DNA from: Ignavibacteriota bacterium | Lineage (GTDB): Bacteria; Bacteroidota; Ignavibacteria; Palsa-1295 | Direction: 5' to 3' | Assembly: GCA_963787835.1 (NCBI GenBank) | Contig: CAWBEI010000002.1 | Span: 1,632,001 to 1,696,000, forward strand | Length of the DNA stretch: 64,000 nucleotides | Shown here: piece after piece, positions 788 through 56,008 of the stretch | Layout of the letters: every line of letters begins with the position of its first letter | How positions within the stretch are numbered: position 1 is the stretch's first letter | Position numbers and translations under genes: made by a program | Notes under the pieces: generated by a model | Databases searched by the model: none | What the model saw: only the letters and a program-made list of their open reading frames with translations | What the model was told of the DNA's origin: nothing

Positions 788-1678
788 ATGAGATCTTTTT
801 CGATTCCGTTCGCAATTTTGCTGTTTGCCGCGATTGGCATGTCCGGCTGCAAGGACGTTGGTTTCCGCGAGATCGATGTTTCGGCAAAGAGCCGTGCTTC
901 GGTGCAGACGGCGCGGGATGTCATGGCGCAAATTCAGCAGGGGTTGCATTATTTCTACGAGTCGAAGCACCGTTATCCGGAAACGACGGAAGCGTATCTG
1001 TACGACTCCATTCGCAATTACATTCCCAATCAGATCGACCCGATCGACCTCTATCGCAACGATAACGGCAAGGGATATTTTATTGCGGTCGGTGCGCGTT
1101 CGGAGAAGATTGTTTATCGCTACCCTCCGACGATCGGGATTGGCGATTACACGCTCTACTGGGTTGGCCAGAACGGCGTAGATGAAGAAGGCGAGGGCGA
1201 TGACGTCGATGCGTGGCAGCCATCGGACACGGCCCGTCATTTCGAACGCCAGCGCCGTTTCGATCTGCAGAATGATGGCGTTGCCGATCAAATGCACCTC
1301 ATTCGTACCGGTCCGGATATCGATCGCGATTCGGTAGTATTCGAGATCACGCGGCATGATTCGCTGAAATATCGTGAGGAATGGCCGCTTTCCGAATATT
1401 TCAAAGACCGTCCTGAACTTAACAGCGATGAACGAAAACGACTCATCCGCTCGGAACTCGATCGCTTTTTCACCCCGGGCGCTTTTACACACACCGATTC
1501 CCTGACCTATCGTGCGTGGCCGCATTGGGGCGAAGTGCAGCCTGACTCGCCGGAGATGACGGAACTCGTTCGTTCGGGCGAAACCATGTTCAATTTCTAT
1601 GAAGGCGCTCGTGGCTCGAAGGGAATTGCATGGCTGCCTTCGGATAAGAAATTTGTAGTAGTATGGAATATTAAGTAA
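788..1678 (+). CDS. Lipoprotein with a GspG/pseudopilin-like middle segment and a C-terminal domain paralogous to 1705..2367
   Basis: Lipobox 'IGMSGC'. 'YTLYWVGQNGVDEEGEGDDV' resembles the T2SS GspG C-terminal motif. Confidence 0.7.
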   Translation: MRSFSIPFAILLFAAIGMSGCKDVGFREIDVSAKSRASVQTARDVMAQIQQGLHYFYESKHRYPETTEAYLYDSIRNYIPNQIDPIDLYRNDNGKGYFIAVGARSEKIVYRYPPTIGIGDYTLYWVGQNGVDEEGEGDDVDAWQPSDTARHFERQRRFDLQNDGVADQMHLIRTGPDIDRDSVVFEITRHDSLKYREEWPLSEYFKDRPELNSDERKRLIRSELDRFFTPGAFTHTDSLTYRAWPHWGEVQPDSPEMTELVRSGETMFNFYEGARGSKGIAWLPSDKKFVVVWNIK

Positions 1679-1774
1679 GAAGTAAGAGGTAATAAGTAAG
1701 AGGTATGAAGCATGAAAAATTTGGGATCGGTTGTATAATTTTCCTCTCTTACTTCTTACTTCTTACTTCTTACT
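1674..1774. repeat. Inverted heptamer arrays (AGTAAGA)n / (TCTTACT)4
   Basis: AGTAAGA-type units at 1674-1703. Four perfect TCTTACT units at 1747-1774. Confidence 0.85.
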
Positions 1775-2367
1775 TCTCACCCTCCATGCGTGCGCAGCAG
1801 AGATCTGCCACCGATTCGCTTCGCGCACCCGCTCACTATATTGATTCCCTCCTCAAGCTCGATTCCATAGACCGAGCATTACAGCTTGCAGAAGAACGCC
1901 GCTTTCAGCGAACAAAACAACTCGCGACGCAGCGTGTACTCGATCTTACCGGCGATAGCATTCCAGAAGTATTGCGTCTGGAAGGATATGTGAAAGGGAA
2001 GGTGGACGATACAAGGCTGACCTTCACCATTAAATCAAAGGGTAAGACGCTGTTCGAGGATTCCTGGCTTGCAGGCGGTTATTTCGATACCGCCGATCAT
2101 TTGCCGGACAGTATCAAACTAAAGCGATTGCGAACCATCGTGACCGTCTTTTTCGCGAATGAAAATTTTGAAGTGGTGGATTCGAATGAATTCGATACGA
2201 TCTTGAAGCAAGTTGCAGAAGCCGATGTGCATCCGCATTCTTTCGAAGCATCCGAGATCTTTCGTGAGCCTCGTGTGATGTATAGCGTGTATCATAGCCG
2301 CGATTATTGGTACGGCCTGGTTTGGGATCCGAAGAACAATAAGTTTGTGAAGGCATGGAGGAATTAA
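1705..2367 (+). CDS. Secreted hypothetical protein
   Basis: 220-aa ORF with a signal peptide ending 'MRA-QQ'. Paralogous to the C-terminal half of the upstream lipoprotein. Confidence 0.7.
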   Translation: MKHEKFGIGCIIFLSYFLLLTSYFSPSMRAQQRSATDSLRAPAHYIDSLLKLDSIDRALQLAEERRFQRTKQLATQRVLDLTGDSIPEVLRLEGYVKGKVDDTRLTFTIKSKGKTLFEDSWLAGGYFDTADHLPDSIKLKRLRTIVTVFFANENFEVVDSNEFDTILKQVAEADVHPHSFEASEIFREPRVMYSVYHSRDYWYGLVWDPKNNKFVKAWRN

Positions 2368-2369
2368 AT

Positions 2370-3086
2370 ATGAACGCTCGTAGGGACGTGCTGCGCACGT
2401 CCTCTTCGTCTGTCCCACGGCTGAAGGGGAAGGACGTGCACGGCACGTCCCTACGACTACGGCGTTTTCCTCGCACATTCTTTCGCCAAACCAGCACCCT
2501 TGTTGCGAAGGAAATTCTTGGCGCGTACTTGCATCGTGTATTGGATGGCGAAGAACTCATTGGTAAGATCGTCGAGACAGAAGCCTATTGCGTGGGTGAT
2601 GAGGCATGTCACGCCTTTCGTGGTACGACCCCGCGTAATGCGGTAATGTTCGGGGAGGGAGGGTTTTCCTATGTTTATTTCACCTATGGAATGCACCATT
2701 GCTTTAATATCACGGCGAACGAAGAAGGTGTTGCCGAGGCTGTTCTTGTTCGGGCCATCAAGCCGGTGAAAGGCATCGAAACGATGAGGGTATTGCGCTC
2801 CAAGGCAATTCGGGATCGGGATCTTACGAATGGACCGGGTAAGCTATGTCAGGCAATGTCGCTTTCACGAACGGAGAACGGAATCGACTTGGTCGAAAGT
2901 GACGAACTCTTTCTTACTCGTGGGGAGAGCCACACTCCGGCGAATCTTATAGGAGTTTCCACCCGTATAGGCATCAATGTCGCTCAGGATCGACTTTGGA
3001 GATATTATATAACAGGGAATGAATATGTTTCACGCACCAAGCCGTCTGTATCGGGTACCGTGGCTGGCCCTCGTCGTCGTAAGTAG
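2370..3086 (+). CDS. mpg: DNA-3-methyladenine glycosylase (AAG/Mpg family)
   Basis: Motifs 'GKIVETEAY', 'YVYFTYGMHHCFN', 'AVLVRA', 'LTNGPGKLCQA', 'RIGI'. GGAGG precedes ATG 2370. Confidence 0.93.
   Translation: MNARRDVLRTSSSSVPRLKGKDVHGTSLRLRRFPRTFFRQTSTLVAKEILGAYLHRVLDGEELIGKIVETEAYCVGDEACHAFRGTTPRNAVMFGEGGFSYVYFTYGMHHCFNITANEEGVAEAVLVRAIKPVKGIETMRVLRSKAIRDRDLTNGPGKLCQAMSLSRTENGIDLVESDELFLTRGESHTPANLIGVSTRIGINVAQDRLWRYYITGNEYVSRTKPSVSGTVAGPRRRK
2378..2456. repeat. REPIN-like doublet (two inverted GTAG-type REP hairpins)
   Basis: TCGTAGGGACGTGC...GCACGTCCCTACGA inverted arms. Each REP has its own GGACGTGC/GCACGTCC hairpin. Confidence 0.8.
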
Positions 3087-4197
3087 CTTGTGTATCACAT
3101 CATGCGGAAAGGGACAGAACGTGCCGAACGCATCGCCGACGATGCTGGATAAATTCCCGCCCGAGCGGGCTGCGCTTGCGAAAGAGATCGAAGATGTCGG
3201 CGGTCAGCACATTCACATGCCGCCGCTTCCGCAGGCGTATTCAGCGGATCGGTATCTCGGCGTTACTCCCGAATTTCTTCGTGATTCGCTGAAGGGAAAA
3301 GTTGTTCTTATCGACATTTGGGATTACACCTGTATCAACTGTATTCAAACGCTTCCTTATATCAAAGCATGGAACGACCGCTATAAGGACAAAGGCCTGG
3401 TGATCATCGGCGTTCATTCTCCGGAATTTGATTTTGAGAAAGATCCCAAGAACCTGGATAGTGCCGTGAAAGAATTCGGGCTCGATTATCCGGTCATTGC
3501 CGACAATGATTATGAGATATGGAACTCTCTTTCGAACCAGTACTGGCCGGCGAAATATTTGTTCGACAAAAATGGGATTCTTCGCGCCGAGCACTTTGGC
3601 GAAGGGGATTATGAATCGTTCGAGGCATTCCTGCAACAGATCCTCCTGGAACGCGATAGCTCGATCGATCTGCCCCTGCCGCTTGCACCCGTCCGGGAAA
3701 CCGATAAGCCGGGATCGGTCTGTTACCGCGCCACGCCGGAAACCTACGTAGGCTTTGCCCGAAATCATCTTGGCAATAGTATGAATGATACGGACATGAT
3801 TTCGCATGAGTATCATCTTCCACACATGATGAATAAGGATCTACTGTATCTCGATGGGAAATGGACTGTCAACAGAGAATATGCTCAGCCCAGCGGGAAA
3901 TCGGATGCAAGCCTTGTTTTCGATTATCAGGCAAAAGAAGCGAACCTTGTCATTCATCCGTTGGCGGAAAGTGGGTTCAAGGTGATGGTCACACAGGATG
4001 GTAAGCCGGTTCCGAAAGCGGACCGAGGCGCGGACATTCAAGAAGCGGACGGGAAGACATTCATTAAGGTACAAAATGCACGGATGTACCGTATCACGAA
4101 TAATCAGGGCTTCGGACGGCACACACTAAAGTTGACGGCCACGACACCAAGCTTCGGCGCATACGCCTTTACATTTACGACGGCCTGCAAGCATTGA
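3019..4197 (+). CDS. DipZ-like thioredoxin/redoxin lipoprotein
   Basis: Lipobox 'CITSC'; 'IWDYTCINC'; 'GVHSPEFDFEK'; 'NQYWPAKYL'; 'TPETYVG'; C-terminal 'AYAFTF'. Confidence 0.85.
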   Translation: MNMFHAPSRLYRVPWLALVVVSSLCITSCGKGQNVPNASPTMLDKFPPERAALAKEIEDVGGQHIHMPPLPQAYSADRYLGVTPEFLRDSLKGKVVLIDIWDYTCINCIQTLPYIKAWNDRYKDKGLVIIGVHSPEFDFEKDPKNLDSAVKEFGLDYPVIADNDYEIWNSLSNQYWPAKYLFDKNGILRAEHFGEGDYESFEAFLQQILLERDSSIDLPLPLAPVRETDKPGSVCYRATPETYVGFARNHLGNSMNDTDMISHEYHLPHMMNKDLLYLDGKWTVNREYAQPSGKSDASLVFDYQAKEANLVIHPLAESGFKVMVTQDGKPVPKADRGADIQEADGKTFIKVQNARMYRITNNQGFGRHTLKLTATTPSFGAYAFTFTTACKH

Positions 4198-4482
4198 TCG
4201 CATTCGGCGATTTCCCCGAAACGCTTTTACTGTCCTATTGTTATACACCGCAAGGTTTCGGAAAGTCCGAAACCCTGAATGCTGCATTCAGCGCCCCACG
4301 CATCGTCGACGATGCCATCGCCCCCGATGCACATTGGTAACGATGCCGGACGCTTCGTCGCCGATGTCCTCCCATCAAACACGATGTTCACATGGTATTT
4401 GATGGATGCATCGCCCCTTGGTCGCTGAGTGTTGTTCTTCATAGATGTACCACGCATCGCCCATGATGCTTGATCGCAATCG

Positions 4483-6402
4483 ATGCCACAACTGACGCTT
4501 CTGAAACGCATCCCCCGATGGGTGGCACGCATCGCCTACGATGCGTTTTGGCCTGACTTCGACCCCATTCAGATTTTCTCCAAATCCTTTATCCGGGCGC
4601 TGGTGTTCCTCGCGATCGCCTGTACGCTCGCGCAGCCGATCTATGCCCAATCCGGCGCAGCAGATACGAGCGCCAATAAGGTGCTGAATGCCGCAAAGGA
4701 TGATATTCGTCTCGAAAATCTCACCGATCTTAATTCGACGGGCGACGATGCGACCATGTTCGTTTCCCCTGCCGATGGCTCCATCTATTTTACAAGTTCA
4801 CGATCGGGCAAGCAAATTCTTTATGTTGCAAAGCGCGTCCCTGGTGCTGACCCTAAAGATCGCTCGACTCATTGGGGTACACCGGAGGTTTTCACCGAGC
4901 TTCCGGGTATGCAGAACATCAGCTCGCTTTCCATTGCGGGGGATGGTGTTACTGCCGTGGTCGGAATGTGTAACCGCCCGGATGCGATCTTGCAGTCCTG
5001 TGATATTTATCAAGGGCAGATTATAGGTGGCAAGCTGGATAATCTTACTCCATTAGGCGCACCTATTAATTCTGAATGGTGGGATGCCCAGCCCTGCATC
5101 AGTCAGGATGGTCAATTGCTGTTCTTTGCGAGTGATCGTAAAGGCGGTCATGGCGGTGTCGATATCTATATGTGCTCCAAATCTGTCGATGGCAAATGGG
5201 GTCCGCCGGTTAATCTGAGCTTTAATACGGGTGGTAACGAGCTTTCGCCTTTTATTGCGAGCGACAATCAAACGCTGTATTTCGCCGCAGACCATCTTCC
5301 GGGCGGTATGGGCGGATACGATATTTATGTCACGCACCGCCAGGGTGAAAACGAATGGACGGAGCCCAAAAATCTCGGGCCGGCAGTGAACTCGAAGAAT
5401 AACGATCTTTTCTTTTATGTGCCGCAGAATGAGAATGCCGTCTATTTTTCAAGTGACCGTCCTGGGGGGTTAGGCGGATACGATCTGTATCGCCTGTACG
5501 TTCAACCCGCTCCTCCGAAGCCAAAATATGTGACGCTTACCGGCCGCATCCTCGATGCCGAAACGAATCAGCCCATCACATCCAAGCCAGAAATTTCGAT
5601 CTCCTTCTCGGATAGTAAGCAACCCCTTGCAAACGATGCAACGGGAGCAGCGTACAGCGTGAAAGTTCTGGCCGGAAGCCTTGTGCATGTCAGCGCTGGT
5701 GCAGAAAACTATGTTTCCAATGCCCTCGAGATCCAGGCGCCACCGACGGATGTGCCGCCGCTCCTCTCTCAGGATATTATGCTTACTCCCTCTCATGCGA
5801 GGGTATATGGACATGTGACGAATTCTTATAAGAACACACCGCTTCAAGCGACCGTAACGCTGGAACAATTAGCCGGTGGTGTACCGCCGGTTTCTGTCGA
5901 GACCGATCCGGCCACCGGAGCTTTTTCTTTCAATGTCAATCCGCTCATTTCTTACCGGATCAGCACGACAGTAAAGGATTTCGAACCGTTCGAAGACAAG
6001 ATCGATGTTCCGAGCGCTCGTGAAAAACTTATTTCCATTCAAAAGGAGATCCGGCTCACCCCTGTGGCAACACAAAACGTTGTAATCTATTTCGATGTCG
6101 ATCATTCCGACATTAAGCCGGAAGAATTAGCGAAATTTCCTGAATTTATCCGACAGGTGAAGGAAAACCCAAGCGTTCGATTCGAGATCAATGGCCATAC
6201 GGATTCAACCGGCTCCGTCGCGTATAATCAGGCTCTATCGGAGCGACGTGCGAAATCGGTGGAAGACTATTTGCTCAATCAGCAAGTGCCGCGGGAGCAG
6301 ATCGCTGTGGTGCAGGGATTTGGTAAGTCGCACCAGCTCGACCCGAACGATTTAGCGAAGAACCGACGCGTCGAAGTACGAATTGTGGGAAGGAAGGACT
6401 AA
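4483..6402 (+). CDS. OmpA-family protein with PD40 beta-propeller repeats and carboxypeptidase-regulatory-like domains (PorE-like, no TPR seen)
   Basis: Repeated 'LFFASDRKGGHGGVDIY'-type PD40 motifs. C-terminal 'GHTDSTGS..YNQALSERRA...NRRVE'. Start uncertain. Confidence 0.88.
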   Translation: MPQLTLLKRIPRWVARIAYDAFWPDFDPIQIFSKSFIRALVFLAIACTLAQPIYAQSGAADTSANKVLNAAKDDIRLENLTDLNSTGDDATMFVSPADGSIYFTSSRSGKQILYVAKRVPGADPKDRSTHWGTPEVFTELPGMQNISSLSIAGDGVTAVVGMCNRPDAILQSCDIYQGQIIGGKLDNLTPLGAPINSEWWDAQPCISQDGQLLFFASDRKGGHGGVDIYMCSKSVDGKWGPPVNLSFNTGGNELSPFIASDNQTLYFAADHLPGGMGGYDIYVTHRQGENEWTEPKNLGPAVNSKNNDLFFYVPQNENAVYFSSDRPGGLGGYDLYRLYVQPAPPKPKYVTLTGRILDAETNQPITSKPEISISFSDSKQPLANDATGAAYSVKVLAGSLVHVSAGAENYVSNALEIQAPPTDVPPLLSQDIMLTPSHARVYGHVTNSYKNTPLQATVTLEQLAGGVPPVSVETDPATGAFSFNVNPLISYRISTTVKDFEPFEDKIDVPSAREKLISIQKEIRLTPVATQNVVIYFDVDHSDIKPEELAKFPEFIRQVKENPSVRFEINGHTDSTGSVAYNQALSERRAKSVEDYLLNQQVPREQIAVVQGFGKSHQLDPNDLAKNRRVEVRIVGRKD

Positions 6403-6407
6403 CACCC

Positions 6408-7295
6408 ATGACCGAACTACACGCCATTAAAAGTTACGAAGATATGAAGATGGATCGTCGGCGAGGATTTGAAATTATAAAGCGGTTTTCCGCCCTCGCA
6501 CTCGTGTGGGGTTTCGCAATGCTGTGTTTGCCTATGGGAACCGCTCATGCTCAGCTCCTGAGCCGAGGCGATCTGTTCGGACCCGGAGCGCCGCCGCCGC
6601 TTGCCGGTATCGAGATCGGCTTTGGCCAACATTCTGAAATGGGAGCGCTCGACTGCGACTGCGGTTCCCAATTTACCGGTGGTACCGGCACGGGATTGCT
6701 TGGGTCACTCTTCTTCGAACTACCGCTTGACTATCAATGGGCAATCGGGATCAAAGCCGGGATCGACTTCAAGAATTTTTCCACTACAACCCCCTTGAAC
6801 GATGTGGTTGCTGTTCAAGTCCCAAACGTCAGCACACCGGACACCGCTGTGCTGCCGGTGACCCGAACGGCGAATGTCAAAACAACCTATCTTGACTTTG
6901 CGCCATACGTTCAGTATCAATTTTTTAGAATGGGCCCATTCGTGCAAATGGGACTTGGGTTCGGATTTCTGGCATCGAACAGCCTTACGCAGAATCGGGA
7001 ACTTGCGGAGGGTGCTTCGATCCCTGCGCAGAACGGCCATGCCGCCATTACGAACCTGACCTTTACGAATGGAACTCTTACGGAAGTAATTCAAGGTGGC
7101 GCCACAACGGTGAATTCGCTCCGGCTGGGGATTTTACTTTCAGCCGGATATAACATTCAGGTTTCCGAGCGTTCTATATTCGCGCCATTGATCACGTACG
7201 ATTTTCCGCTCACGGTGGCTGGTAATACCGGTGGCGCAAACTGGAGGATCGGCTCTTTGTATGCTTCGGCTCTTCTTAAATTTCAACTGAATTAA
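6408..7295 (+). CDS. Outer-membrane beta-barrel-like protein
   Basis: Signal peptide ending 'AHA-Q'. Alternating amphipathic strands. Ends 'SALLKFQLN'. Confidence 0.65.
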   Translation: MTELHAIKSYEDMKMDRRRGFEIIKRFSALALVWGFAMLCLPMGTAHAQLLSRGDLFGPGAPPPLAGIEIGFGQHSEMGALDCDCGSQFTGGTGTGLLGSLFFELPLDYQWAIGIKAGIDFKNFSTTTPLNDVVAVQVPNVSTPDTAVLPVTRTANVKTTYLDFAPYVQYQFFRMGPFVQMGLGFGFLASNSLTQNRELAEGASIPAQNGHAAITNLTFTNGTLTEVIQGGATTVNSLRLGILLSAGYNIQVSERSIFAPLITYDFPLTVAGNTGGANWRIGSLYASALLKFQLN

Positions 7296-10200
7296 TGGCA
7301 TTCTCTCAACGAATGAGCACTCTCGGTCGCTGGTTGCGAGCGCCATGGGCGTGGCTTGCCCTGCTCCTGCTTTTGTGCTCTGTTCCTTTGAAAGCGCAGT
7401 CCTCGCTGACAACAAGTAATGCGTTCGTCATGGCGGACGTGTCAACTGATGGTGAGGGTTTGGTTCGGTATTTTTATGCGAATGGCCAGGGTATCAGCTT
7501 TCTCGCTGCGCGGACATCCTATCTCACCGTGCTCGTGGATACGACCTACTATACCAATAACCCGAACCTTGTTGCCACTGCCTCTCCGAAGTATCCGGTC
7601 ATGCTGCAGGGCGGCAGCACGAAGAAGATCCAGGATACGATCGAGACCGTTTGGCAGCCTAACGGAGCGACCGGTTTTGATATTGTTCAGGATATTTATC
7701 CGGTCGCGTTTCCTATTATGCAATGTGGTCAGATCGTGTTCAAGTTCAAAATTCGCAATCACGAGAGCTCAACGATCTTTGCGCAAGCGCAATATATGAT
7801 CGAACGTATGCCTCACGGAAAATGTAAATACCTCCAATGATAACGCGCCTATCACCACGCGTTATGGCTATCTCTCAACCGCCTGGACTTCCTTCCCGGG
7901 TCCCGCGGGCTCTATTCCTCCGTACTACATTGGATCGTTAGCGACCTTGACCAGCGGAAGTTTCCCAACGCTTCTTTCGATGGGTTTCAATAACGACTCA
8001 CTCGCACCCGAGCCGATGGGACTGATGCAGCCCACTCTTTTTTCGTTCGTTGATTGGAGGGAAGTTGTTACCGATTGGACGTGGAGCGGGCCAGCAGTGG
8101 GAATCCAATACCCTATGATTGGAGACGAGGCGTTGATCCTTCAATGGGGCGCGAGCAACGTGGATGCTAATGATACTGTAGAACTTGGCTGCGATAGCTA
8201 TGGCATGCCTGGTTGTACACCGATCTGCCTTAGTAATTCTGTTGATGCAATGATCATCCACCCGGATCACATCATTTGGGATCCGAATACCGGCCCATCC
8301 GGCTCGTATATCCCAAATCACTTCCCCGTTGAAGGGGTTGTTTGGAATCAATTGGCTCAGACCGCAAACAATGTTACCGGTTTGCAATCGATCACGAATG
8401 ATGCCACGGGCGCAGCCGATGGCCCTGTCAAGATCGTTTCTCCGTTGCCCGTCACCAATAATGGATATTCTCAATCCCATGTGATGGCGGCCACGCTTAA
8501 TGGTGGGTTCTCAACTTCTGTTTCGTGGGAGGATACCGTACTCGCGGGTATTCTTACCAACTGCTCTACCGACTCTCTCTATGATCTTGCGCTTGGCATT
8601 ACGGCAGGCGGCGTTGGCGGAACGAATTGCCTGAACGGAACTTATTATTGTCCGATCGAGGTGGATTGCCAGTCGAAGGATGTTAATCCGCCACGACATT
8701 CCCCCCATGTGGTGGTGGGAAATCTGAACTCCTGCAATAATCCAAAGGAGTACAGCGATTCGGTTTTCGATAACCGTTCTACCGATCTGGGCTTGCAAAG
8801 CATTACCTGGACCGTTACTCCGAATGCGAATGCTGTTAAAGTAGTGGTCGGTGCTATCACGCCTTGCACCAATGCGGAAGTTCCTATTACTGTTACCCAG
8901 CTCGACACCCTTCACGCTCCATGTGTGAATTTTACTTTTACGGACTGTGCCGGCAATGTGAGCACCGATCAGATATGCTTTGAAGCATGTCTGCCTCCGG
9001 GCCCTCTCGATACGCTTTCGCCTCGTATTAGGCTCTTGAATCGCTACGATCAGAATATTAACATTCCCTCGGATTCTGCAAATGATGTCTGTGAATATCA
9101 ATGCAGCCAATGGGTTGTTACGGATTCTGTCATCAATGGGCGCCAGCAGGATGAAGGTCTTAAGTCGATCAGTGTTGTATCGGAGACGAATATGTCGTTC
9201 AATCTTCCGAATCCGGTTACGCCTGGAGTGAAGGAAGATACGTTCAGTGTCTGTGTGATGGATTCTTTGTTTGATGGCTCGATCATTATTGGCGCGAGCG
9301 ATATCACTGGGATCAATGCGGAAACGTTCGATACGATTACGTATTGCACGGTGGTTGATACCACACCTCCTGCAGTGGTTGTTTCTACCCCGCTCGCGAA
9401 CGATTGGTTAGTCACCGTTAGCGAAACGCACCCCTGGGATCGCGGCATCGACTCGGTCTTGTTGACCTTTGTCAGTAACTGCGCACCTCAACCAAATCCG
9501 GGCGTGATAAAGCTCTTCCAACTCAATCCGACGACATGGCTTATCCTTCCCGCCGATACGTGTGCGGATACGATCAACTTCAATGTTGAGATCACCGATA
9601 CCTTCCAAAGCGCTTCCTTCTCGATCGAATCCTGGGATTGCGTTGGGAATCATACCATTCCCCATAATATCAATATTACCAAGAAGAGCGATACCTACTG
9701 CCCAACCGATTCGATCATTCACATTGGTTCTGATGAAATAGAAGTCATCTTTTCGGACGTCCATCCAGGCATTACGTACGACGAGGGACTCGACTCGATC
9801 TGGTTCTACAATGTTCACAATATTACCATGTTGTATAAGGGAATTCAGACTGCACCCCATTCCATTCATGAGCCGCTGACCGGTATGACTACTCCGAAAT
9901 TCCCCCTGCGGGACACGGTGTACTTCTTCGTAACGGACACCACCATCCATGACACCCAGCCTGCAGAAGTATGTTGGGACGCCGTCGATGGATCGACGGT
10001 CAATAGTGGAGGAACCGGAAACCCACTCTGCGCAAATCCGGTATGTTGGAGTTATACACTGGTACAGGATACCACCCCTCCCATCGTCAAGGTTGGCTAT
10101 GAGCCATGCGATTCTCTCACCATCAACGTTACCGATACCCGCACCAATGACCGCGGTATCTATCGTGTATGGGATACGCTGACCGAAAATATCCAGCCCT

Positions 10201-11207
10201 TCTCCGAAATAGATTCCGGGGCCGCATCGCTGGCATTTAATCTCCCCATTACCGACCGCACAAAGTCCGCGAGCGGGAAGTTAGTTGCTAACGACGTTTG
10301 GGGGCATCAGTCAAGCGATCCCAGCACACAGGCGCAGCATACCGATACGGTCGGCATCGATGTCTATCGCCAGGATATGGCCATGATCGCCAGCGGGATC
10401 GTCAAGACCACCTCCAGCGTGACGTTTAACGTTCCCGTCTATCTCGATTCCACGGACGCGTTCCCGCTCAGCCAAAAGAATATCACGCAGTTCCAATTCA
10501 GCTTCCACATTACTTCATCGTCGGCGATGAATGGAAGCAATTTCCTCAAGTTTGTGGGCACGGCCAATGCACCGGCCATGCCCGCCGGATGGACCATCAC
10601 CCCGGCCCCGGGAACGGCTCCCGGCGCCGGACCTGATTACACCATTACCGGAACGAGCGCTGCGCCGCTCGGGAACCTCGACGCCCATGACACCATGCTC
10701 TATCTCGTCTTCTCCGGAAGCGAAACGCCCGATGTCGAGGAGGCGCAGATCGTCGTCGATCAGGATGCCTGTGGCGATGAACTCTCCTACAATGCCGGTA
10801 CACCAACCACCCTCGCAACGCCGAACTACAGCGTAACCCTCCCCGCGCCTGCCGGGCTGCTCACCGGCGGTACCATCCTCTTCATGGATTCCTGTGCTAC
10901 CATCGTCGGAAATAACCCGCACCCGACCATCCTGTCGCTCGCACCCGCCATTCCCAATCCGTTCTCCGGTTCTACCGTCGTGCAGTACACGGTTCCAAAC
11001 CAACTGCCCGCATCGCCGACGATGCTTGTACGACTGGAACTCTATAACGCGTTGGGACAAAAGATCAAGACCCTCGCCAACGAAACCGATAACCAGGGCA
11101 CCTATCAGGTTGTCATGGATGGCAGCACCCTCCAGGCTGGTACCTACTTCCTCCGGCTGCAAGCTGATGGCCAGGTTTGTTCACAAACCCTTATTCTCAA
11201 GCATTGA
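7295..11207 (+). pseudogene. Large Cys-rich T9SS cargo protein (~1303 aa) with cohesin-like domain, split by an apparent +1 frameshift near 7803 (ORFs 7295..7840 and 7947..11207)
   Basis: The first ORF has the signal peptide and the second has the CTD 'PNPFSGST...LYNALGQ...GTYFLRL'. The second frame is open from 7800. Removing one A at 7803/7804 gives a continuous 'QYMIDVCLTENVNTSNDNAP'. May be a sequencing error. Confidence 0.75.
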
Positions 11208-11291
11208 GTACCGAGTAATGAGGTGTTAGAGCCGCACCGCATCATGGGTGATGCGTGCATCGCCGAAAGCATCCGCATCGCTGCTCGGTAC

Positions 11292-13082
11292 TCACCTTCG
11301 TTTTCCCGCAATGATAACGCCCGTCTCTTGTTTCAAGGATTGAGCGGGACTTTGGGAAGTAATTTGTACCAGTACACTATAAAGACCTGGCGGAAGGATT
11401 TGCCCATTATCTCGCTTCCCATCGAACGTCAGTGCAGATGCTCCAAGAACCGGAGTAGCATTCGCCAACGTGCGAACTATTCGTCCGTGTGCATCATAGA
11501 TACGCACTTGCATGGTCCATGAGGCGCTGGTACCCGTTTGTACGGTGAGAGTGCTGACGTCCTCGAAGCCATCGCCATCTGGCGAGAATGGATTCGGAGA
11601 AAAGCTTGCGTTGAAAACGGTTCCAATTGACGGTGTCACGATGGTGTCAGAGGTATTGACGGAGTTTTTAGCAAGGGGTGTTGCGCTATCGAGCGAGGCT
11701 TGCCAATTCTGAGGATCGTTGCTTTCCCCGCGGGGATCTTTGCGTTCTAAAGAAATTCCAACGAAGCTCTTTTTTAATAGGCTCTGCTGCCAGGTTTTAT
11801 AATAGTGCACTGAGTCGATCGAGGATGAATCGCGATTGTGCAAAACAACAAAGCACGAATCATTACCCAGATCGAGCGAGGAAGTTCCAAGTTGCGTGAT
11901 GCCGGTTCGGCCAGTAAGTGCAGGATAGGTTGTGTAAATGGAGTCATTAGCAGTAACAATACCGAACGAATCCGGGGCGATCATGAGTAATGGAACAGTA
12001 TGCGAATATTCACCGGGTTTTGATTCGCCCGTGATGAGCCGAGTAGAATCCAGTGAGATCCATTTGTCAGAAAGATTATAGACTTCAAACCATTCACAAC
12101 TACTCACTAACGGATCGAACATGATCTCGTTGATGACAACGCTATCCATTGGGATAGGCACCATGACGGTGCTTCGTAATGTATCATTTGCAGGATTCAC
12201 ATCTAAAGAATCCTGAATGTAAAGCGTGACCGGGAATAAGCCATAAAAATTATCAGGGAGCGGGATAGATACAACCAGCGAATGATTGCTCGGTAGATCG
12301 ATCGTCAGCTCTTGAAGCATTGGTGCAAATGTGCCAATTTGCATGATCAGCGAAGTATGCGTAACCGTATCCAGCCCCACATTTGCAATGGTAACTGAAA
12401 GAGAAGTATTCGAGGTGAAGGCACTCGTGAGCGCCAGATCGTAAGCTCGTTTCCGTACGGAATTTGGGCGTAGGATGGTCGAGCCGCTCGGATCTTTGCA
12501 CGCACTCCAGTTCGTTGAATCATATCCAAGGACGTAGGGATCTATTCGCTCGATGGAAATGCCATCCGATTTGATCCATTTCCCACTATACCATGCGCTG
12601 TCAATAAGATTTCCAAGAGGATCATGCAGCGAGATCGTGGAGCCGGTATTGTTCAGGTCCGGTAGGCTGAGGCGGATAATTCGCTCGATGTCCACATCAC
12701 GGATGGCAGCAAGTTCGGTATCATTACTCGAAAGGACGACTAGCGAATCGGGAGGGATGGTGGTATTCGTGTTGGGTACCATAACGGGGGTGTGACCCTT
12801 AACGGTGAGTACCCATCCGGCAATATTAATGGTGTCGGGGGTAGTATTCAGCAGCTCGATCCACTCCGGTTCTGGGCTTACCGGCGCGAACATGATCTCA
12901 TTAATGACGACACTCGAAACCGCTCCAAGGCTCTTCGTTTGTGCAGAAGCTATTTCCGGTATAAGGAATACAATGATAAGGATGAAAGCGAATTTTGGAG
13001 TCATGATGTAAGGGACTTTAAGACCGTCTGGTGGTCTTGAGAAGATTATTTCTCTACAAAGTTCGTGATTATTTTTCGCCAA
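11292..13082 (-). CDS. Lamin-tail-domain protein (two LTDs) with FlgD-Ig / gliding-motility-type C-terminal domain
   Basis: Two 'VVINEIMF.P....EW.E' and 'GISLER.DP...NW' units. C-terminal 'FSPNPFSPDGDG...IYDAHG...DGKRDNGQILPPGLY'. The true start is probably the later Met (MTPKFAF). Confidence 0.85.
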   Translation of the reverse strand: MAKNNHELCREIIFSRPPDGLKVPYIMTPKFAFILIIVFLIPEIASAQTKSLGAVSSVVINEIMFAPVSPEPEWIELLNTTPDTINIAGWVLTVKGHTPVMVPNTNTTIPPDSLVVLSSNDTELAAIRDVDIERIIRLSLPDLNNTGSTISLHDPLGNLIDSAWYSGKWIKSDGISIERIDPYVLGYDSTNWSACKDPSGSTILRPNSVRKRAYDLALTSAFTSNTSLSVTIANVGLDTVTHTSLIMQIGTFAPMLQELTIDLPSNHSLVVSIPLPDNFYGLFPVTLYIQDSLDVNPANDTLRSTVMVPIPMDSVVINEIMFDPLVSSCEWFEVYNLSDKWISLDSTRLITGESKPGEYSHTVPLLMIAPDSFGIVTANDSIYTTYPALTGRTGITQLGTSSLDLGNDSCFVVLHNRDSSSIDSVHYYKTWQQSLLKKSFVGISLERKDPRGESNDPQNWQASLDSATPLAKNSVNTSDTIVTPSIGTVFNASFSPNPFSPDGDGFEDVSTLTVQTGTSASWTMQVRIYDAHGRIVRTLANATPVLGASALTFDGKRDNGQILPPGLYSVLVQITSQSPAQSLKQETGVIIAGKRR

Positions 13083-13240
13083 ACGGTGAAAAAGCCGATT
13101 TTAAAGTCTTTCGACAACGCCGCATCATGGGTGAGGCGCGCATGGTCCGCATCATGGTTGATGCTGCATCGCCCACGATGCTCACGATGCACAACGAGCC
13201 GGTAGGAACGGAGGCTGTTGCGGCGTGTTAAGAGCATACA

Positions 13241-14701
13241 ATGCCAGAAATAGAACTTGAAATAGCGCCACCTTCATCGCCCACAGCATCGTCGGCGATG
13301 CGGATGAAAGCCCGGTTACATCAGCCAAAGCAAGCATCGCCCACGATGCGCGTATCTATTGTGACGTTGGGATGCGAGAAGAACACGGTGGATTCGGAGG
13401 TGATCGGCGGGATGCTCTCGCGTCGGAATATAGCGCTCGCCAGTTCGCCAGAGGAGGCGGATACGGTAATCATCAATACGTGCGGGTTTATCGATCACGC
13501 AAAAAAGGAATCGATCTCTACGATCTTGGAGGCGATCGAACTGAAGAAACAAGGCGTGATCGGTACGCTGTATGTAGCGGGCTGTCTTTCGGAACGTTAC
13601 CGCTCGGAACTTCAAGCGGAGATGCCCGAGGTCGATCGTTTTTTCGGTACGCAGGATTTTGAAGAAATCTTGCATGAAGTCATTCCGGAAAGCATCGCCG
13701 AGGATGCTGGATCTTTCGATTTAAAGTATCATTTGCTTGATGAGCGATTAGTATCGGACCATAGACATTTTGCTTATTTAAAAATATCCGAAGGGTGCGA
13801 CCATCCGTGCTCGTTCTGCGCGATCCCGATCATGCGTGGGGGACATCGTTCCCGTGCGATAGATGAGCTGGAGTTCGAAACGATGATGCTTGGCAGTAAT
13901 GGCGCGAAGGAGATCGTGCTGATCGCGCAGGACTCGACGAATTACGGACTTGACTTGTACGGTGAGCGATCCATAGCGAAATTAGTTACACGTTTGGCGC
14001 GCATTCCGAGCATCGCATGGATCCGTTTGATGTATGCATATCCAGCTCAGTTCCCGTTCGATCTGCTGGATGTGATGGGCAATGAGGAGAAAGTGGTGCC
14101 GTATCTGGACATTCCGGTGCAGCATGCCTCGACGGCGGTGCTGAAATCGATGCGGCGTGGCATCACGCGCCGCGCAACGGAGGAACTAATTGCCACTATT
14201 CGAGAGCGGGTTCCAGGCATTGCGCTACGGACGACGCTTATCACCGGCTACCCCGCGGAAGGCGATCGGGAATTTGAGGAACTCGAAGAATTTGTCGAGC
14301 AGATGCAGTTTGACCGGCTCGGTGTTTTTACGTACAGTCAGGAGGATGGGACGACGGCGCACCCGCTCGGCGATCCCATTCCACAGGCTGAAAAGTTTGC
14401 CCGCCAAGCCAGACTATATGATATCCAGGCGGAAGTTTCGCGTTCGAAGAATCTCGCAAAAATTGGATCGGTCGAGAAGGTGCTGATCGAACGCATGGAA
14501 GTTGAAGACGGCAGAGAGTATTACTACGGCCGCACATCATCGCACGCGCCGGAAGTGGATGGGGAAATCCGTGTAACAGTTCCGGATACAATGGGCGATA
14601 GCACGAATACCCTGCTTGGCAGTTTTGTTCACGCGCGCATTATGGGCATCGGTGAAGAAGATGGATCCAGCGATTTCGAGCTTCAAGCGGAATTAGTTTG
14701 A
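13241..14701 (+). CDS. rimO: Ribosomal protein S12 methylthiotransferase RimO
   Basis: 'TLGCEKNTVDSE', 'INTCGFI', 'AGCLSERY', radical-SAM 'EGCDHPCSFCAIP', and TRAM-region 'APEVDG'. Confidence 0.95.
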   Translation: MPEIELEIAPPSSPTASSAMRMKARLHQPKQASPTMRVSIVTLGCEKNTVDSEVIGGMLSRRNIALASSPEEADTVIINTCGFIDHAKKESISTILEAIELKKQGVIGTLYVAGCLSERYRSELQAEMPEVDRFFGTQDFEEILHEVIPESIAEDAGSFDLKYHLLDERLVSDHRHFAYLKISEGCDHPCSFCAIPIMRGGHRSRAIDELEFETMMLGSNGAKEIVLIAQDSTNYGLDLYGERSIAKLVTRLARIPSIAWIRLMYAYPAQFPFDLLDVMGNEEKVVPYLDIPVQHASTAVLKSMRRGITRRATEELIATIRERVPGIALRTTLITGYPAEGDREFEELEEFVEQMQFDRLGVFTYSQEDGTTAHPLGDPIPQAEKFARQARLYDIQAEVSRSKNLAKIGSVEKVLIERMEVEDGREYYYGRTSSHAPEVDGEIRVTVPDTMGDSTNTLLGSFVHARIMGIGEEDGSSDFELQAELV

Positions 14702-14704
14702 CCG

Positions 14705-16240
14705 ATGATGAAAGGCCTTTTTTGCTTTTCGCTCTGCAGTCTTGCATTCATCCTCTGTGATGGGAGTACGTTTGTGAAGGCCCAGCGCAGGATGCCTTCA
14801 GAAGCACGCAGGCATGAGATCGAGGCGAAAGGTCCACGCGCGATGTTTGATCTGGTCGCATTTAAAGGTTCCAACTCCGATAGCACCCGAATGGATCTTT
14901 ATGTCGCACTTCCATATTCGTCCCTTGATTTTTCCTATGCCATCGATAAATATGTTGCCGATTACGCGGTTGGTGTTGTTGTAATCAACAAAGAACGAGA
15001 GCTTCTCAACCGATACGAACCCTATAATGTGCTTGAAACGACGACCGATCATCAAGCCCGTCTTCAGCGTGGCAGGGGACAAGCGGATGCCGAACAGATC
15101 TCATTCATGATGAGTCCTGGTGAGGACTATGAGTTGCGCCTTAGCGTCCGCGATCTCACCTCGCGGCGTGAGTTCGACACCATCGTTCTGTTCCATGTTA
15201 AGAATTTTTCTGGCGCCGCGCCCGGAATGAGCGATCTCCTGCTTTACCGAGAGAGAAGAGGGATGCGTATCGTTCCGTCTATTGGGCCGGATGTTTCGAG
15301 CATCATTGAGGATGCGGGCGAAGCACACATCGCCGACGATGCCCGCATCGCCGACGATGCTAATGCTGGTCTATTCGCTGAGCTATACAATCTTCCCGCT
15401 GATTCCACACTCGGGATAGTTACAGAAATCATTCAAAATAGATCCGAGGAGAACCCCGGTCAGCCAATAGTAGCAAGTCATACCACCTCCATTCTTCGAA
15501 CCTCACATTCTGGCGGTTCCGGATTTACAGCATCGCCCACGATGCTTGCTCCGGCTTCAGTCTCCGAGACTCCATTATTTGTCCCTCTTGAATTTAGTGA
15601 GTTGTGGATGGGCCGTTATACTATCCACACATTCATTCTTCCTTCCGTGAAAGATACAAATTTGACTGATCCATCCTCGTTGCAAAAAGAGGCGCTGACG
15701 TATGCCACACGCAGCATCCGTGTTCGCATCGCAAGAGGAATTCCATTCGCGGAGGCTGATCTCGATCAAGCGATCGATCAATTACATATCATAGCAAGCG
15801 GTGCTGAATGGGACTCACTCTCGAATGCGAAGACTACCAAGGACAAGCGGCAAGCGATCATGGAATTCTGGAATCGCAAAACTTCTGAAGCCGATCGCGT
15901 GTCGATCTTACATTCCACCAATAATCAAGGCCCCTCAAACCGTCCGATGGACGTCTTCTATGCAAGAGTGGATTATGCAAATACACATTTTGGGAATGAA
16001 CATACGTTATCATCGAGATCACAACAGGGATGGAAAACCGACCGTGGTCGCGTCTATATTGCTCTGGGCCCACCAGACTTTATCGATAGCCATCCCGATG
16101 AGACACTACAAAAGCCGTATGAAATATGGCAGTACTCTTCGCTCAATGTTCGATATACGTTTGTCGACGAATATATGCTCGGCGAGTACTACCTGAGGGG
16201 TGCTGCTCCTCCGCAAGGTACATTCATTTGGGACAAATAA
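14705..16240 (+). CDS. GWxTD domain-containing protein
   Basis: 'RVDYANTHF...GWKTDRGRVYIALGPPD...YEIWQY'. N-terminal signal peptide. Confidence 0.88.
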   Translation: MMKGLFCFSLCSLAFILCDGSTFVKAQRRMPSEARRHEIEAKGPRAMFDLVAFKGSNSDSTRMDLYVALPYSSLDFSYAIDKYVADYAVGVVVINKERELLNRYEPYNVLETTTDHQARLQRGRGQADAEQISFMMSPGEDYELRLSVRDLTSRREFDTIVLFHVKNFSGAAPGMSDLLLYRERRGMRIVPSIGPDVSSIIEDAGEAHIADDARIADDANAGLFAELYNLPADSTLGIVTEIIQNRSEENPGQPIVASHTTSILRTSHSGGSGFTASPTMLAPASVSETPLFVPLEFSELWMGRYTIHTFILPSVKDTNLTDPSSLQKEALTYATRSIRVRIARGIPFAEADLDQAIDQLHIIASGAEWDSLSNAKTTKDKRQAIMEFWNRKTSEADRVSILHSTNNQGPSNRPMDVFYARVDYANTHFGNEHTLSSRSQQGWKTDRGRVYIALGPPDFIDSHPDETLQKPYEIWQYSSLNVRYTFVDEYMLGEYYLRGAAPPQGTFIWDK

Positions 16241-55447: not shown

Positions 55448-55532
55448 AGTACCGAGTGATGCGTAACGAGTACCGAGTGGGGAAGAAACCTATTCTTCTC
55501 TACTCGGTACTCGTTACGCATCACTCGGTACT
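55448..55532. repeat. Perfect 31-bp inverted repeat built from GAGTACC-type heptamers
   Basis: Arms at 55448-55478 and 55502-55532. Related arms at 11205-11216 and 11283-11294. Confidence 0.85.
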
Positions 55533-56008
55533 CATTTACCGATCGATACCACCTTCAGTTCCAACAATCCAGCCGGAACTTTAACATGTACTTCTTCACC
55601 AACTTTTTTATTCATCAGCGCACGGCCAATGGGTGAAGAGACCGAGATCTTCCCACCTTCGAAATCTGCTTCTTCAGCAGAAACCAGCTGATACACGCTA
55701 TCTTTATTTGTTCTGTTATTTTTGACCGTCACGCGGGTCATGATGCCAACCTTATCCGTTTGGATATTCGTCTCGTCGATAACGGCAGAGCGCGCCAGCA
55801 CATCCTCCATTTTGCGGATGCGAAGTTCCAGAAGGCCCTGTTCCTCGCGAGCGGCATCGTATTCGGCGTTCTCCGAAAGGTCGCCCTGCGCGCGTGCCTC
55901 GGCGATGCGCGCCGCAATATCCCGGCGACCATGAAACCGAAGGTTCTTGACTTCCTCTTCTAATTCCGTCAGACGCTGCCGCGTCATGTATATCTTTTCC
56001 TGATCCAT
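55532..56008 (-). CDS. greA: Transcription elongation factor GreA
   Basis: 'ARAQGDLSENAEYDAARE', 'ISVSSPIGRAL', 'VPAG'. Confidence 0.96.
   Translation of the reverse strand: MDQEKIYMTRQRLTELEEEVKNLRFHGRRDIAARIAEARAQGDLSENAEYDAAREEQGLLELRIRKMEDVLARSAVIDETNIQTDKVGIMTRVTVKNNRTNKDSVYQLVSAEEADFEGGKISVSSPIGRALMNKKVGEEVHVKVPAGLLELKVVSIGK

Follow-up and report, generated by a model that had tools for sequence, protein, structure and literature searches.

A 16-bp palindrome clustered around rimO in an Ignavibacteriota genome likely marks a selfishly spreading micro-insertion rather than a centromere

Copies of the palindrome in the window

We analyzed a 64,000-nt stretch (here called the window) of the genome of an Ignavibacteriota bacterium (G000; contig C2, positions 1632001 to 1696000). 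Its genes for a thioredoxin/DipZ-like protein, an OmpA-like protein, a type IX secretion system (T9SS) cargo protein, RimO, and a GWxTD protein carry copies of the palindrome GCATCG-N4-CGATGC. A previous reading of the sequence alone had counted about 18 copies in ~12.4 kb and had proposed either a new centromere-like array or a locally spreading micro-repeat. The window contained nine exact copies (0.01 expected from shuffles), 13 copies with at most one stem mismatch (0.46 expected), and 16 matches to a fuller consensus with at most two mismatches. At each of these stringencies every copy lay within positions 3130 to 15545 and positions 15546 to 64000 held none, which bears out the earlier statement that the remaining ~48 kb was free of the motif. 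The 16 matches together with a compensated variant at 13149 approach the original count, and the peptides reported for the copies (ASPTM, IADDA, IAEDA, and SSAM) and the named host proteins were all confirmed.

The cluster was denser than expected from uniform placement on contig C2 (eight collapsed sites in 13 kb versus a maximum of seven in 20,000 simulations). Short-read contigs from four soil runs of one study (possibly the source sample; coverage by contigs was low) spanned the copies at 3130, 4300-4330, 15327-15360, and 15530, and no indel was reported there; these copies are thus not assembly errors. Among sequencing runs, no RNA data set was listed as containing the sequence. The core, folded as DNA, formed a stable hairpin, and an Rfam scan of window positions 1 to 22000 gave no match. 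The individual copies are as follows (window coordinates, except for the last line).

3130..3147, plus strand: type I element (16-bp palindrome plus 2 nt) that adds 18 bp in frame (ASPTML) to the thioredoxin/DipZ-like gene (3019-4197)
4300..4330, plus strand: intergenic overlapping pair (exact at 4300-4315, one mismatch at 4315-4330)
4352..4367, plus strand: decayed intergenic copy with two mismatches
4454..4469, plus strand: one-mismatch copy upstream of the OmpA-like gene
4529..4544, plus strand: exact copy in the OmpA-like gene (4483-6402), in the part for the N-terminal region; net gain of 18 bp relative to the empty allele of relative G006 (89% identical)
10515..10530, plus strand: variant with T-A for G-C as the outer pair on both sides, in the T9SS cargo gene (sequence match)
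11010..11025, plus strand: exact copy within gene 7947-11207, where it falls in a loop of the C-terminal T9SS domain
11239..11254, plus strand: intergenic variant with the stem GCATCA
13149..13181, plus strand: intergenic tandem pair with a 17-bp period (variant at 13149-13164, exact at 13166-13181)
13274..13307, plus strand: apparent nested pair at the 5' end of rimO (18-nt unit 13285-13302 inside an outer variant copy, 13274-13284/13303-13307)
13334..13349, plus strand: exact copy in the N-terminal extension of RimO
13692..13707, plus strand: one-mismatch copy that encodes IAEDA in a linker of RimO, at columns where 79% of ortholog cells are gaps
15327..15360, plus strand: tandem pair (HIADDA-RIADDA; period, 18 bp) within a loop of the GWxTD gene (14705-16240) that is variable
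15530..15547, plus strand: exact copy plus TT, cleanly inserted in frame in the GWxTD gene (18 bp, ASPTML), with a gap in 14 of 14 orthologs
C2:1019277 and C2:1019313: copies in the N-terminal extension of DnaA

Insertion alleles and distribution in the genus

The cluster region is syntenic across the genus (relatives are designated below by G numbers). Codon alignments showed clean 18-bp gaps at the copies in DipZ, OmpA, RimO, and GWxTD; the motifs in the RimO, GWxTD, and DipZ orthologs therefore sit in indels, the outcome for which the sequence-only reading had suggested looking. In six aligned genes (5 to 15 genomes each), 40 copies occupied 29 positions, 23 of which were unique to one species. 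Columns that were at least half gapped underlay 23 of the 40 copies, compared with 148 of 3,494 background residues (4%), and the other 17 were mostly in poorly aligned N-terminal extensions.

The same pattern was seen locus by locus. The DipZ insertion at 3130..3147 is missing in G002 and G009 and is present with two substitutions in G006, and the codon alignment places an insert of G009's own 13 columns beyond the ASPTML position. G006 and G002 each carry their own inserts in the RimO loop of 13692..13707, and the T9SS loop that holds the copy at 11010..11025 contains an enlarged tandem array in G002. At the start of rimO, the unit 13285-13302 appears, from its sequence, to have split an older variant copy, a nesting for which no empty allele was seen.

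Candidate empty homologs were available for 72 of the 196 filled sites tested, and the 15 pairs with at least 86% identity gave a net gain of +15 to +21 bp; in intact orthologous genes, the gain was only +15 or +18 bp, which corresponds to five or six added amino acids. Junctions were ambiguous by 0 to 5 nt. One DNA methyltransferase gene, undamaged in G000, has four inserts within ~300 bp in G001, and the corresponding stretch in G002 has two; several of these inserts are out of frame. Two positions in this gene were struck in both species, with different junctions, which suggests a target preference. Copies were also present in pseudogenes and in rRNA operon spacers. We conclude with high confidence that the 17- to 18-nt motif is an inserted micro-element of this genus. 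The independence of the copies from reading frame had been taken as a sign of selection on the DNA; it is instead explained by insertion of a palindrome in either orientation, after which only in-frame lengths survive in genes.

Three hosts of the element deserve mention. A DNA methyltransferase-restriction fusion gene has been repeatedly disrupted, in three species, by element inserts and by an element of the REP-associated tyrosine transposase (RAYT) kind, REP denoting repetitive extragenic palindromic sequences (stretches L145:4860-5220 in G001, L147:7130-8630 in G002, and C4:132065-133666 and C5:291900-293060 in G000). The N-terminal extension of DnaA is long and variable in the genus, with copies in G000, G002, and G006 and decayed copies in G004 and G011. 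The tmRNA gene of G000 (C3:311840-312339; ~500 nt long) holds a REP hairpin and one copy each of types II and III, the sibling elements defined below.

Genome-wide, G000 contained 64 exact copies versus 1.5 expected, so the suspected excess over background was real. The copies were dispersed rather than gathered in one region: the motif is regionally confined within the window, as first described, and 55 of the 64 exact copies lie elsewhere in the genome. The excess was limited to the 4-nt spacing (0 to 4 copies at other spacings). All 14 relatives of the same genus carried the motif, at 3 to 107 copies each (a 35-fold range), compared with 0 to 8 copies in 26 other, more distant genomes. A 19-nt version, compared with 30 of the 64 parts of a species collection, matched 110 loci; among the 80 loci listed, the repeated matches (20 loci) belonged to four Ignavibacteriota or Candidatus Kapaibacterium records. 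Viral contigs yielded 11 single matches to the motif. These species-specific insertions and the genus-wide variation in copy number support the micro-repeat option of the earlier reading.

The element consists of a 6-bp stem, a 4-nt loop (usually CCGA or CCCA), and 1 or 2 flanking bases. Its flanks are asymmetric: in 42 of 64 copies the core is preceded by C and followed by T (chance expectation, 12.5%). The element also forms tandem arrays with a 17- or 18-bp period. Two sibling cores in G000, GCATGA-N4-TCATGC (type II; 29 copies) and GGATGA-N4-TCATCC (type III; 19 copies), share the design and loop types of type I and are likewise nearly genus specific. Sibling proportions vary by species (e.g., 17 type I and ~79 type II/III copies in G001; ~3 and 2, respectively, in G010). 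The dyads also include possible inverted copies of Type IIS sites, a resemblance that was considered.

Chromosomal position and the centromere question

SlmA SBS, matS, and RacA ram are chromosome organizer sites with which the element can be compared. In G000, the cluster (C2:1.635-1.648 Mb) is ~0.65 Mb away from dnaA (C2:1.019 Mb) and the GC-skew minimum (0.955 Mb). A canonical parS pair (C2:990,928 and 992,782) is located 27 kb from dnaA, and canonical parS matches were present in 15 of 15 genus genomes. Each genome encodes one ParB. That of G000 keeps the parS-type residues R173 and G201, whose equivalents define parS binding by ParB (PMC7383237), and these equivalents are kept in 14 of 14 aligned ParBs of the genus, from motif-rich and motif-poor genomes alike (residues were located by motif pattern, which did not match the ParB of G008). 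No second ParB-like protein or Noc paralog was found, nor any match to MatP in G000; SlmA/TetR-type and RacA-type proteins were not searched. A loss of canonical parS or a change in the ParB residues, for which the earlier reading had proposed checks, was thus not borne out.

The element resembles parS/ParB and Noc/NBS systems, as outlined in the same source (PMC7383237), in its ~16-bp dyad, its location inside genes, and a mild bias toward the origin side; it differs in that it arises by insertion at lineage-specific sites and varies 35-fold in copy number, with an unchanged ParB and canonical parS elsewhere. A parS/Noc reading is not supported, given a lone ParB with residues of the parS type and the canonical parS pair in the vicinity of dnaA. 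We rejected a ParB centromere given the distance of the cluster from the origin, the dispersal of 55 of the 64 copies, the presence of canonical parS, and the unaltered ParB. The proposal of a new centromere, or of a nucleoid-organizing array for a divergent ParB, is not supported either in view of the range of copy number and of sites that are mostly species-specific insertions.

Type I copies favored the origin-bearing contig of G000 (41 of 51 collapsed sites, for a contig that makes up 54% of the genome; P = 7e-5), whereas types II and III did not (21 of 38) and one CGTC REP family did (39 of 53). In the single-contig genome G001, 36 of 54 sibling copies (P = 0.02) and 27 of 43 CGTC REPs lay in the dnaA half. 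The bias toward the origin side is therefore mild and common to ordinary repeats. Exclusion from or confinement to the terminus region, as for sites of the Noc/SlmA/MatP type, was not observed: the bias is only mild, and contig C6 has two type I copies no more than 55 kb from its skew maximum. Two findings speak for the earlier reading, namely this mild bias and a recurrent local hotspot.

The hotspot is the rimO-GWxTD region itself. Its syntenic stretch in 14 relatives contained 32 copies of the three types versus 5.3 expected from genome counts, a comparison in which kin are not independent and some copies are inherited. Six of the 14 were enriched 4- to 17-fold, one was slightly enriched, and seven had none (0.03 to 0.36 expected each). 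The stretch in G001 holds six type III copies in place of type I. G004 has none there and carries nine type III copies within 8.5 kb at an unrelated locus (G004:C21:5400-14000), a cluster that spans an operon whose proteins match G000 weakly. The hotspot may reflect local bursts in combination with tolerant proteins.

These data bear on a binding array for a chromosome organizer, possibly not ParB, in which new sites are laid by insertion. The dyad has the size of parS/NBS, type I is enriched on the origin contig and the siblings in the dnaA half of G001, and the rimO-GWxTD enrichment recurs with one type substituted for another. Such an array is nevertheless very unlikely. Besides the parS-type ParB, the canonical parS sites, and the lack of a Noc paralog or MatP described above, G010 (100% complete) has only 3 type I copies and ~2 sibling copies, CGTC REPs are similarly biased while types II and III in G000 are unbiased, and two type I copies lie near the skew maximum. 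Shared copies also decay (as in DipZ of G006), and the variable part of the element is the center of the dyad. A composite version, in which a dedicated enzyme writes the 17-nt hairpin, which would be shorter than other small mobile repeats known to us, in local bursts and the host has co-opted the rimO-GWxTD arrays as a platform for a non-ParB organizer, refilled independently with different siblings across the genus, seems to us no less far-fetched.

Possible routes of spread and related repeats

The element likely spreads selfishly rather than serving as a centromere mark. Regarding mechanism, we favor, with moderate confidence, a hairpin micro-insertion element copied via single-stranded DNA with the assistance of a nuclease and imprecise repair. 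A nuclease that normally processes REPs, with a HUH enzyme of the RAYT type as the most likely candidate, would be borrowed to handle the single-stranded hairpin, which imprecise repair would join into many unrelated sites; perhaps half of our confidence extends to a RAYT-type enzyme specifically, which is a tentative identification. Insertion would be favored in transiently single-stranded, hairpin-forming DNA, and spread would occur by local bursts or short hops. Purifying selection would then spare copies only in tolerant loops, N-terminal extensions, and spacers, and bursts followed by such selection would produce clusters like that in the window.

The association with REPs is consistent with this proposal. 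REPs of the GTAG and CGTC types make up at least seven families in G000, and the tips of these REPs carry many hairpin modules that are interchangeable. Of the 64 copies, 25 lie within 60 bp of another REP signature (versus 1.3% of random positions), although this enrichment is partly circular and to that extent weakens the case, because the signature list was hand-built from the repeats of G000. Among the 84 non-REP copies of all three types, 16 lie in the loops of stems of at least 5 bp (versus 2.7%). Copies occupy the tips of several unrelated REP families, whose other copies are empty or have different hairpin modules. One RAYT-flanking REP tip is empty or holds the motif or other modules across G000, G002, G008, G011, G004, and G003; the REP tips of one RAYT type carry the element in three species; and in the motif-poor G008, two of the four copies listed lie ~100 bp from a RAYT gene.

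Could the 16-mer then be an internal piece of an ordinary REP or REPIN, moved as a passenger? The 25 copies in REP contexts and the RAYT-flanking REPs of three species would fit. The remaining 39 copies and all window copies, however, have no REP signature nearby, several unrelated families host the element while their other copies are empty, and the coding inserts are bare 18-mers. This passenger explanation is largely refuted, and we regard it as barely credible.

With respect to candidate enzymes, G000 (97.9% complete) had approximately ten Y1 (RAYT-type) matches and five small GIY-YIG genes, and no match to Cas1, reverse transcriptase, or Ku. Ku was present in 1 of 15 genus genomes and reverse transcriptases in 6 of 15; at the six reverse transcriptase loci viewed, the sole nearby copies, in G002, are parts of RAYT-type REPs. 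The RAYT enzymes cleave single-stranded DNA at C|T and C|A and carry out strand transfer (PMC8266576), and Ssn nucleases are described as cutting single strands near CGTC-type hairpins (PMC11893778). The 17-nt tandem unit begins with A and ends with C and so would fit a C|A cut.

Several other observations weigh against our proposal. No mobilizing enzyme is tied to the element: RAYT numbers bear no relation to copy number (11 Y1 matches and 3 copies in G010; 2 and 80, respectively, in G014), and at none of nine Y1 loci in G000 does the bare 16-mer serve as the flanking REP of the locus. The element has no GTAG/CGTC tag, its flanks offering only C before and T(T/G) after, and its imprecise junctions and frequent C|G targets are unlike precise HUH strand transfer. 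Replichore polarity was not significant in G000 (33 leading versus 20 lagging loops, P = 0.10; 20:20 for the flanks), and inspection by eye showed no orientation switch at dnaA in G001. No present-day empty allele appeared in the low-cover contigs of the four runs, copies in REP tips may have traveled as passengers, and the recurrence of the hotspot is not fully explained. A true 17-nt mobile element with its own enzyme is possible but doubtful.

Template switching would dispense with a dedicated nuclease. A stalled or broken strand would switch onto a nearby hairpin copy with which it shares a microhomology of 1 to 5 nt, and the palindrome would grow into the flanks by fold-back synthesis. 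The imprecise junctions with their 0- to 5-nt ambiguity, flanks that often prolong the palindrome, tandem arrays with 17- to 18-bp periods, local clusters, and the lack of Ku, reverse transcriptase, and Cas1 in G000 all accord with this route. It leaves unexplained why a few fixed 16-mers of constant core length spread, the C..T asymmetry, and the target positions struck in two species, and we consider it unlikely.

Alternatively, the 16-mer could be the joined-end footprint of a larger element with a small nuclease gene, given that the core can be read as a constant half-site joined to a variable one. Palindrome-nuclease links do exist in the genus: at G000:C5:66909-67328, a mini GIY-YIG gene has tRNA-Met on one side and, on the other, a duplicate tRNA with a 16-bp GC-rich palindrome in place of the D-loop, a cassette conserved in G002 and G006. 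This palindrome, which also fills REP tips elsewhere in G000, differs from the element, and the cassette was therefore rejected as its source. Furthermore, among the half-site pairs listed within 1.5 kb of each other in G000, the intervening DNA was ordinary genes; 20 GIY-YIG loci of relatives showed one type II copy several hundred bases off and no type I or III; and small GIY-YIG genes bear no relation to copy number. A footprint origin is accordingly quite improbable.

The closest likeness to our hairpin micro-insertion element is found in the small dispersed repeats (SDRs) SDR1 to SDR8 of Nostoc and its relatives, which are very short, dispersed, apparently mobile, and noncoding and which sit in other repeats. 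The SDRs of Elhai et al. reportedly measure 21 to 27 nt, nest in themselves, and include in-frame coding copies. Likewise, the element is shorter than 30 nt and dispersed, has empty alleles, and is embedded in other repeats and, judging from sequence only, in itself. It thus works like an SDR, which does not make it a member of that family. It differs in its shorter length (16-bp core, 17- to 18-nt unit), near-perfect palindrome, imprecise junctions, different phylum, three sibling sequences, and local bursts. SDR5 inserts precisely and is described as entering HIP1 (PMC5861425, PMC4390886, PMC2884548), and one of these papers reports none outside Nostocaceae among HIP1-rich cyanobacteria (PMC5861425).

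Two further comparisons can be drawn. With GTAG/CGTC REPs and REPINs and their RAYT/Ssn enzymes (PMC3733652, PMC3116915, PMC8266576, PMC11893778), the element shares a short hairpin, lineage-variable copy number, some in-frame intragenic copies, and physical association with REPs and RAYT loci. Unlike them, it lacks the GTAG/CGTC tag, is shorter than the 20 to 40 bp these accounts give, and is a single unit instead of an inverted doublet; it lies inside REP loops, flanks no cognate gene, and occurs near RAYTs only as a module in the tip of another REP. Rickettsia palindromic elements (PMC3733652) similarly place palindromic DNA in frame in working genes and add peptide, but by that account they are longer, whereas the insert of the element comprises 5 to 7 residues with variable junctions.

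Literature searches, with most subscription papers and supplements outside their scope, found no paper on the motif or the lineage. The element is a genus-specific form of a known but poorly understood kind of repeat. How ~20-base repeats move is an old open question, for which this genus provides a clean test set, with three sibling 16-mers, 35-fold differences in copy number, near-identical empty and filled alleles, and doubly hit target positions. The element also shows one way in which core proteins, DnaA and RimO among them, can gain short peptides in their loops. Genome scans should allow for the fact that a dense cluster of 16-bp dyads in genes need not mean a centromere.

Some minor features were also noted. 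The 181-aa open reading frame and the 1,086-aa T9SS gene (window 7295-11207) probably belong together as a single gene; a base at 7803 is missing from contigs of two runs, so the break between them likely stems from the assembly. Contig C2 looks different at its end (1.85-1.92 Mb), which is GC rich with many spurious tRNA calls and is possibly contamination or an island. Window positions 1657-1780 and 55448-55536 contain inverted tandem-heptamer repeats and a hairpin with 40-bp arms.

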